Part shown: in pieces, positions 17,482 through 17,787 of the stretch
Numbering within the stretch: the first letter of the stretch is position 1
Layout: every line of letters starts with the position of its first letter
Assembly (NCBI GenBank): GCA_017541885.1
Contig: JAFXYF010000014.1
Span: 1,930 to 65,929, forward strand
Direction: 5' to 3'
DNA: 64,000 nucleotides
Source: Bacilli bacterium
Lineage (GTDB): Bacteria; Bacillota_I; Bacilli_A; RF39; UBA660
Notes under the pieces: model-generated
The model's database searches: none
What the model saw: the letters and a program-made list of their open reading frames with translations, nothing else
Told to the model about the DNA's origin: nothing
Position numbers and translations under genes: made by a program

Positions 17482-17614
17482 TAATACTCAGTTAGAAGAA
17501 ATAAGAGGAGGAGCTGTACCATATATTTGGATTGGAATTGGAATTGCTGCACTGGTAATATTCTTATCAGGAGTAATTGATGGAATTTCTAATCCTAAGG
17601 AGTGTGGAACATGA
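17456..17614 (+). CDS. Double-glycine-leader peptide A (bacteriocin- or pheromone-like); start codon uncertain (GTG 17456/17459 or ATA 17468)
   Basis: Frame open from 17447. Encodes ...VKVDNTQLEEIRGG|AVPYIWIGIGIAALVIFLSGVIDGISNPKECGT. The leader aligns with that of peptide B. The stop overlaps the peptide B start (ATGA). Absent from the ORF track. Confidence 0.6.
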   Translation: MVIKIVKVDNTQLEEIRGGAVPYIWIGIGIAALVIFLSGVIDGISNPKECGT

Positions 17615-17787
17615 CAAATGTAAATAATGAAACACTAGATAAAATATCTGGAGGTGATTACTCTTATGTCTCAGGACCAATTATAAGTGCAGTGGTCGCA
17701 GTCATTAAACTAATAAGAGATGCCGGCTATGATTTAGGCTCCGGATTTAGACGAATGGCAGATGGTGAAGTATGCCCTCTAAAGTAA
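17611..17787 (+). CDS. Double-glycine-leader peptide B (bacteriocin- or pheromone-like)
   Basis: AAGGAG (17597-17602) lies 8 nt upstream of the ATG at 17611. Encodes MTNVNNETLDKISGG|DYSYVSGPIISAVVAVIKLIRDAGYDLGSGFRRMADGEVCPLK. Lies downstream of the C39 ABC exporter. Confidence 0.75.
   Translation: MTNVNNETLDKISGGDYSYVSGPIISAVVAVIKLIRDAGYDLGSGFRRMADGEVCPLK

Follow-up and report, generated by a model that had tools for sequence, protein, structure and literature searches.

A class IIb-like two-peptide export locus with one conserved tail cysteine per peptide is core to a family of small-genome Bacilli

Two short neighbouring genes from an uncultured member of the Bacilli encode peptides that each end in a tail with a single Cys, and this raises the question of whether the two residues act together and what the pair does for its host. 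The genes lie in a stretch of 64,000 nucleotides (positions 1,930 to 65,929 of contig JAFXYF010000014.1, assembly GCA_017541885.1), hereafter called the window. Our analysis indicates that they belong to a class IIb-like two-peptide export system that is real and conserved, and that stands out in three ways: its pair of tail Cys residues is conserved, its downstream gene encodes a membrane protein that mimics peptide B, and it belongs to the core genome of a family of Bacilli with small genomes.

The operon contains, in this order, genes for a C39-ABC exporter, a small accessory protein, peptide A, peptide B and a small membrane protein, C, and is flanked by a tRNA-Ala gene upstream and by rpsU downstream (Table 1). 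The exporter matches the Pfam models Peptidase_C39 (1e-31), ABC_membrane and ABC_tran, and reaches 355 bits with NCBIfam TIGR01193, which is below the cut-off of that model; its gene is the only C39 gene of the source genome, which contains one PF03412 match. The promoter-like site of rpsU is strong and close to consensus. A pattern scan found no terminator-like site from the exporter to rpsU, so that read-through from the peptide operon into rpsU is possible. No two-component sensor or other bacteriocin regulator adjoins the locus, and there is no gene for a modification enzyme in the operon (exporter, accessory protein, A, B and C) or in its tRNA-Ala and rpsU flanks.

We fetched 80 loci from genomes of the source order that contained a match to the B profile (many genomes, one match each). 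The A and B genes are real; they are adjacent in all 80 loci, each with a double-glycine leader, while the exporter lies upstream of them in 79 loci and rpsU downstream in most, usually followed by yqeY. The layout of an operon free of modification genes, with tRNA-Ala and rpsU as flanks, recurs across these 80 loci. One genome (G003; L136, 5315-5473, minus strand) encodes an additional, third peptide with a double-glycine leader, which contains no Cys, between the accessory gene and A.

Table 1. Features of the two-peptide locus, with positions in the window
Feature	Position	Strand	Remarks
PCAT-type peptide cleavage/export ABC transporter with N-terminal C39 peptidase domain	15015..17096	+	Pfam, NCBIfam
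Accessory protein, 134 aa, N-terminal transmembrane helix and beta-rich domain	17077..17481	+	AF2 model
Peptide A precursor	17456..17614	+	GG end of leader at 17512
Mature peptide A, 33 aa	17513..17611	+	
GxxxG of A (G-V-I-D-G)	17570..17584	+	Invariant, as is the Pro that comes next (17594-17596)
Cys codon of A (TGT)	17603..17605	+	Sole Cys, third from the end (KECGT)
Peptide B precursor	17611..17787	+	ATG start, AGGAG Shine-Dalgarno
Leader of B, 15 aa	17611..17655	+	GG end at 17655
Mature peptide B, 43 aa	17656..17784	+	Ends in ...GEVCPLK
GxxxG of B (G-Y-D-L-G), then Arg-Arg	17725..17754	+	Invariant GxxxG at 17725-17739
Cys codon of B (TGC)	17773..17775	+	Sole Cys, fourth from the end (CPLK)
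Gene C, 52-aa small membrane protein	17772..17930	+	ATG overlaps the Cys codon of B
Promoter-like site of rpsU	17951..17979		TTGAAA, 17-nt spacer, TATAAT, upstream TG

Peptide A is preceded by a double-glycine leader of 19 residues, MVIKIVKVDNTQLEEIRGG. Residues 1-22 of the mature peptide form a hydrophobic helix, which stops at the invariant Pro, three residues ahead of the Cys, and the tail after the helix reads ...DGISNPKECGT. With 26.4 bits against a curated cut-off of 21.5, A is placed in NCBIfam TIGR03949 (class IIb bacteriocins of the lactobin A/cerein 7B family), although the match spans only the leader and the Gly-rich helix and excludes the conserved [R/N/H]-P-x-x-C tail. The same model matches 60 of 79 A peptides of the family at E-values up to 0.01, and some of the 296 database homologs of A already have a TIGR03949-style name at NCBI; in the best homologs the tail is mostly ...RPLKCN.

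The start codon of B and the stop codon of A overlap in the sequence ATGA, and the leader of B is MTNVNNETLDKISGG. B matched no named family in Pfam or NCBIfam, TIGR03949 included; it has 25 close homologs, and the B profile retrieves 499 clusters from a library of representatives at 50% identity. The AF2 model of B (mean pLDDT 77) consists of one long helix, from residue 22 to 51 of the precursor (pLDDT 86-95), with the GxxxG inside the helix and the Cys in an unstructured C-terminal tail of 7 residues. Matches of the B profile in Mycoplasma-like genomes were rejected as B homologs, because they are confined to the leader (positions 1-36) and belong to longer proteins, of up to about 140 aa. 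These genomes, which are complete and of about 0.8-1.4 Mb, encode proteins of ~65-140 aa whose N-terminus resembles the double-glycine leader of the family, for instance L128 (G226) 4701-5117, on the minus strand; in the two places that were fetched, there is no related exporter within 5 kb of such matches.

The original prediction placed one Cys near the C-terminus of each mature peptide, which is borne out by both translations, and named beforehand, as a test, the conservation of the two residues among homologous pairs. This conservation is nearly complete: in 79 species pairs, comprising the window and the 78 fetched loci where both cleavage sites could be placed, the tail Cys occurs in both peptides in 78 cases and in neither in one. 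In the A alignment of this set, the Cys column stands at 99% and is among the most conserved, together with F (94%), two G (99% and 100%) and P (100%); its neighbours in the tail are at 37-44%. In B, the Cys column is also at 99%, alongside two G (both 100%) and two R (92% and 100%), and the neighbouring tail columns are at 18-58%. One Cys in a short peptide may be due to chance, but conservation of this kind is not. Likewise, the Cys is retained by all close homologs (25 of B and 15 of A), by 148 of 150 cluster representatives of B (the best 150 of 499) and by all 120 of the best homologs of A (the best 120 of 296). The C-P-L end of B might be taken for a CaaX-like or heme-regulatory motif; we discarded this idea, since the Pro and Leu after the Cys are kept in only 58% and 54%, respectively, and the distance to the C-terminus is variable.

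Besides being conserved, the two residues can be lost together. The Cys-less pair of our set comes from a MAG (G061) in which the Cys of A is replaced by Asp and that of B by Gly, with the exporter and accessory genes intact. Its A peptide ends in ...TDPAVDSSG, versus ...TNPGRCNG in relatives, and its B peptide in ...NNLGPL, versus ...SLCPLK. We rejected a frameshift as the origin of the altered A, because the DNA shows in-frame, codon-by-codon substitution. Pairs of the same type also occur on two independent contigs from other samples, and thus represent a living lineage and not an assembly error. In the other species of this genus from which both peptides were recovered, both Cys are kept (17 of 17). 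A tandem duplication in a different genome (G031; L134, 4992-5562, minus strand) has given rise to two A/B pairs, the first of which keeps both tail Cys; in the second, both tails are gone and each member has an internal Cys instead.

Coupled loss is thus represented by one clean event and one duplicate pair. There are also two counter-examples, each on a single short contig: in L144, A retains its Cys and B has a Gly in place of it, within an altered tail, and P0002 is an in-frame A-B fusion devoid of the Cys tail of A. As far as sequence comparisons go, the joint replacement of both Cys in one lineage lends moderate support to the idea that they act as a pair. Natural in-frame fusions of A and B were seen twice among metagenomic gene calls, in P0002 and in P0047, the latter retaining both Cys and an internal B leader.

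The peptides had also been described as not cationic, which is correct for the source pair and fails as a family trait. Mature A has one Lys or Arg against two Asp or Glu (net charge -1), and mature B has five of each kind (net charge 0). Among the 79 pairs, however, the charge of B is mostly between +1 and +6 and that of A between -2 and +4, with a sum that is usually positive; the lack of positive charge is therefore peculiar to the pair of the source species.

The gene downstream of B offers a further view of the tails. The N-terminus of C is basic, and the protein contains a single transmembrane helix and the motif G-x-Y-x-G-x-F-x-[RK]. In profile-profile comparisons, C aligns with the C-terminal half of B over 26 columns (probability 78.6%, E-value 1.7e-5), in a region spanning from the GxxxG of B to its Cys, and does not match A. 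The transmembrane helix of C stands where B has its double-glycine leader. A Cys occurs within the last 8 residues in 16 of 42 C proteins, in several of them as the final or penultimate residue, and lies in the part of C aligned with the B tail. By these alignments, C mimics the C-terminal half of B, and the positive-inside rule predicts that its B-like part would face outward. C could then bind A on the producer membrane, in an immunity-like manner, or be a third subunit. It sits at the place expected for an immunity gene, yet a C-like ORF is found in only 42 of the 79 loci, with its start at most 31 nt ahead of the end of B or at most 10 nt behind it; this absence from about 45% of the loci argues against a strictly required immunity factor. 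Further examples of C are found in L131 (5001-5171, minus strand) and L132 (5153-5320, plus strand).

How might the two Cys be brought together? The reading we tentatively prefer, which we consider a good possibility falling a little short of probable, is that A and B together make up a class IIb-like two-peptide system whose Cys are paired, most probably through an interchain disulfide. Each peptide would be made with its double-glycine leader, and the adjoining C39-ABC exporter, aided by the accessory protein, would cut the leader and export the peptide. Outside the cell, A as a transmembrane helix and B as a long amphipathic helix would pack side by side in the membrane via the invariant GxxxG of each; in class IIb bacteriocins, it is through this motif that the two helices pack against each other in the target membrane. 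Such packing would bring together the flexible C-terminal tails along with the one conserved Cys of each, and a parallel register would put both tails on the same side, close to each other. The two Cys would then pair, most probably in an interchain disulfide that locks the heterodimer. Where present, C, anchored in the membrane, may mimic the C-terminal half of B and may occupy A on the membrane of the producer. A complex prediction with mature A and mature B, from alignments of 79 rows, gave a score of 0.07, which is neither for nor against binding.

The original prediction interpreted the single Cys of each partner as an intermolecular disulfide. That the residues are linked in function agrees with their conservation and joint replacement, and an interchain bond between A and B is plausible from the sequences, but the chemistry of a disulfide finds less favour in the host. 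In the source genome, which is 98% complete, we found no DsbA, DsbB, VKOR or Thioredoxin_4/BdbD-like proteins, and spontaneous oxidation is unlikely in the anoxic gut and rumen where the hosts live.

Nor does the accessory protein supply the missing activity, as it is not a thiol oxidoreductase. In about 62 of the 79 loci, an ORF for 115-190 aa occupies this position; no Cys is conserved among these 62 proteins, 28 contain none at all, and the accessory protein has no CxxC motif. The AF2 model (pLDDT 93) consists of a transmembrane helix and a compact beta-rich domain, for which Foldseek retrieved nothing from the PDB at E-values up to 0.001; weaker matches include the membrane-fusion protein BesA (E-value 0.27), and the sequence weakly matches NF045999 (MAG1140 family). 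In pediocin-type loci, disulfides are set during export by PedC, a thioredoxin-like accessory protein. The locus resembles them in that the accessory protein adjoins a C39-ABC exporter and in that the Cys of the peptides matter; unlike PedC, however, the protein found here has neither a thioredoxin-like fold nor CxxC, often lacks Cys altogether, and is predicted to contain a transmembrane helix and beta strands.

A serious rival, even if we consider it unlikely, maintains the same two-peptide system and leaves both Cys as free thiols, so that the peptides would be active only when reduced, or would react with a target, with no covalent link between A and B. The class II bacteriocin lactococcin B was reportedly found to be thiol-activated by Venema et al. 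in 1993 (cited in PMC12648112), which sets a precedent for free thiols; it is an unmodified peptide, made with a double-glycine leader, and contains one functionally important Cys. It differs from the A/B pair in being a one-peptide bacteriocin, whose Cys must stay reduced and unpaired, and we detected no sequence similarity between it and A or B. The absence of disulfide-forming machinery from the source genome and the anoxic habitat also suit free thiols, as does the flexible and exposed tail in which the AF2 model places the Cys of B. Free thiols alone, however, leave unexplained the joint replacement of the Cys in the G061 lineage, the loss of both tails in the duplicate pair of G031, and the frequent near-C-terminal Cys of C, aligned with the tail of B.

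Whether the pair is a weapon at all is a question posed by its distribution. In a class-wide sample, searched with a broader B profile, B was present in all 34 genomes of the source family; a second family contributed one genome with a full-length B and with the exporter, A and rpsU alongside, and other families of Bacilli gave matches to the leader region only. In a family-wide sample, B was found in 378 of 401 genomes, in 290 of the 298 of high quality and in 211 of 214 genera, almost always as a single copy. The A/B pair is thus a near-universal, single-copy core locus of a whole bacterial family. The locus is kept in genomes of only 0.4-1.8 Mb, and the median dN/dS within one genus (0.24 for A and 0.34 for B, both approximate, with dS near saturation) indicates that the two peptides are under purifying selection. 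Ordinary bacteriocins are patchily distributed, and two-peptide bacteriocins are generally regarded as strain-variable accessory traits; near-universal, vertical conservation is unlike their loci, and a core locus that lies beside rpsU in most of the sampled loci gives weight to a role other than killing, which the original prediction had offered as an alternative.

In such a role, A and B, with C if present, would form a complex of the producer membrane or serve other lineage-specific physiology, such as the envelope, host contact or signalling. We judge this improbable, even though much of what is described above agrees with it: besides their distribution, their retention in small genomes and the selection acting on them, the two peptides are always adjacent, with a nearly constant exporter upstream and mostly rpsU downstream, and no two-component sensor or bacteriocin regulator adjoins them. 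C would be paralog-like, copying the C-terminal half of B in a membrane-anchored form, and dispensable in the 45% or so of loci where A and B are still kept; its absence there is difficult to reconcile with a bacteriocin that is toxic to its own producer unless C protects it. Nevertheless, A matches a curated class IIb bacteriocin model, and an exporter followed by two peptides and a small membrane protein is the textbook order of a class IIb operon. The mature sequences also diverge quickly, with 25-54% identity between genera, as do toxins or specificity determinants. Moreover, the locus can be lost. Five genomes without B were checked; four of them also lack any C39 exporter, and the fifth (G178; L145, 1-1500, minus strand) contains a decayed locus with intact exporter and accessory genes, where A breaks off directly behind GVIDG and a foreign insertion with an ORF of 260 aa takes the place of B. 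We are not aware of any housekeeping membrane proteins that leave the cell via a C39-ABC exporter, and it is likewise improbable that A-B, with C, would constitute a lineage-defining, Cys-linked small membrane complex on the surface of the producer itself, as a product of housekeeping C39-ABC export and not a bacteriocin.

If an enzyme from another part of the genome modified the Cys, by S-glycosylation or with a thioether or lipid, this would fit one conserved Cys amid an otherwise variable tail, and losing a shared modifying enzyme could also explain the joint loss. Such modification is very unlikely, however, given that the conserved operon, across 80 loci, holds no modification gene of the kind that clusters for Cys-modified RiPPs (glycocins, sactipeptides, lanthipeptides) contain.

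The preferred reading, a class IIb-like system with paired Cys, can be set against known systems. The locus resembles those of lactococcin G, plantaricin EF and JK, and enterocin 1071 in its adjacent pair of genes with double-glycine leaders, in the C39-ABC exporter of the locus, in the GxxxG of both peptides and in the gene for a small membrane protein directly 3' of the peptide genes; there are also weak NCBIfam matches to the lactococcin G/enterocin 1071 models. It departs from them in the invariant tail Cys of each partner, whereas the classical class IIb pairs known to us have none or two Cys per peptide, and in being near-universal and single-copy across a family instead of patchy and strain-specific. 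Further differences are the similarity of the downstream membrane protein to peptide B, the size of the accessory protein (134 aa instead of about 450) and the lack of positive charge in the source pair. Our literature searches with Mbov_0121/MAG1140, and with class IIb together with RF39 or RFN20, found no prior description.

Two-peptide bacteriocins are thought to be held together by non-covalent helix packing only, and we found none in the literature whose two chains are joined by a disulfide. If the interchain bond is true, this would be, as far as we could find, the first covalently linked two-peptide bacteriocin of its class. Should the pair not be a weapon, it would represent a new use of C39-ABC export. 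The system is compact (five genes, with 33 residues in mature A and 43 in mature B), which places it within reach of synthetic peptides despite its uncultured hosts. These gut and rumen bacteria, whose genomes measure about 1 Mb, form a family in which one Cys per partner is kept across more than 200 genera and the locus occurs in about 97% of good genomes. In all, our results suggest that the pair matters more to its hosts than an ordinary bacteriocin would.
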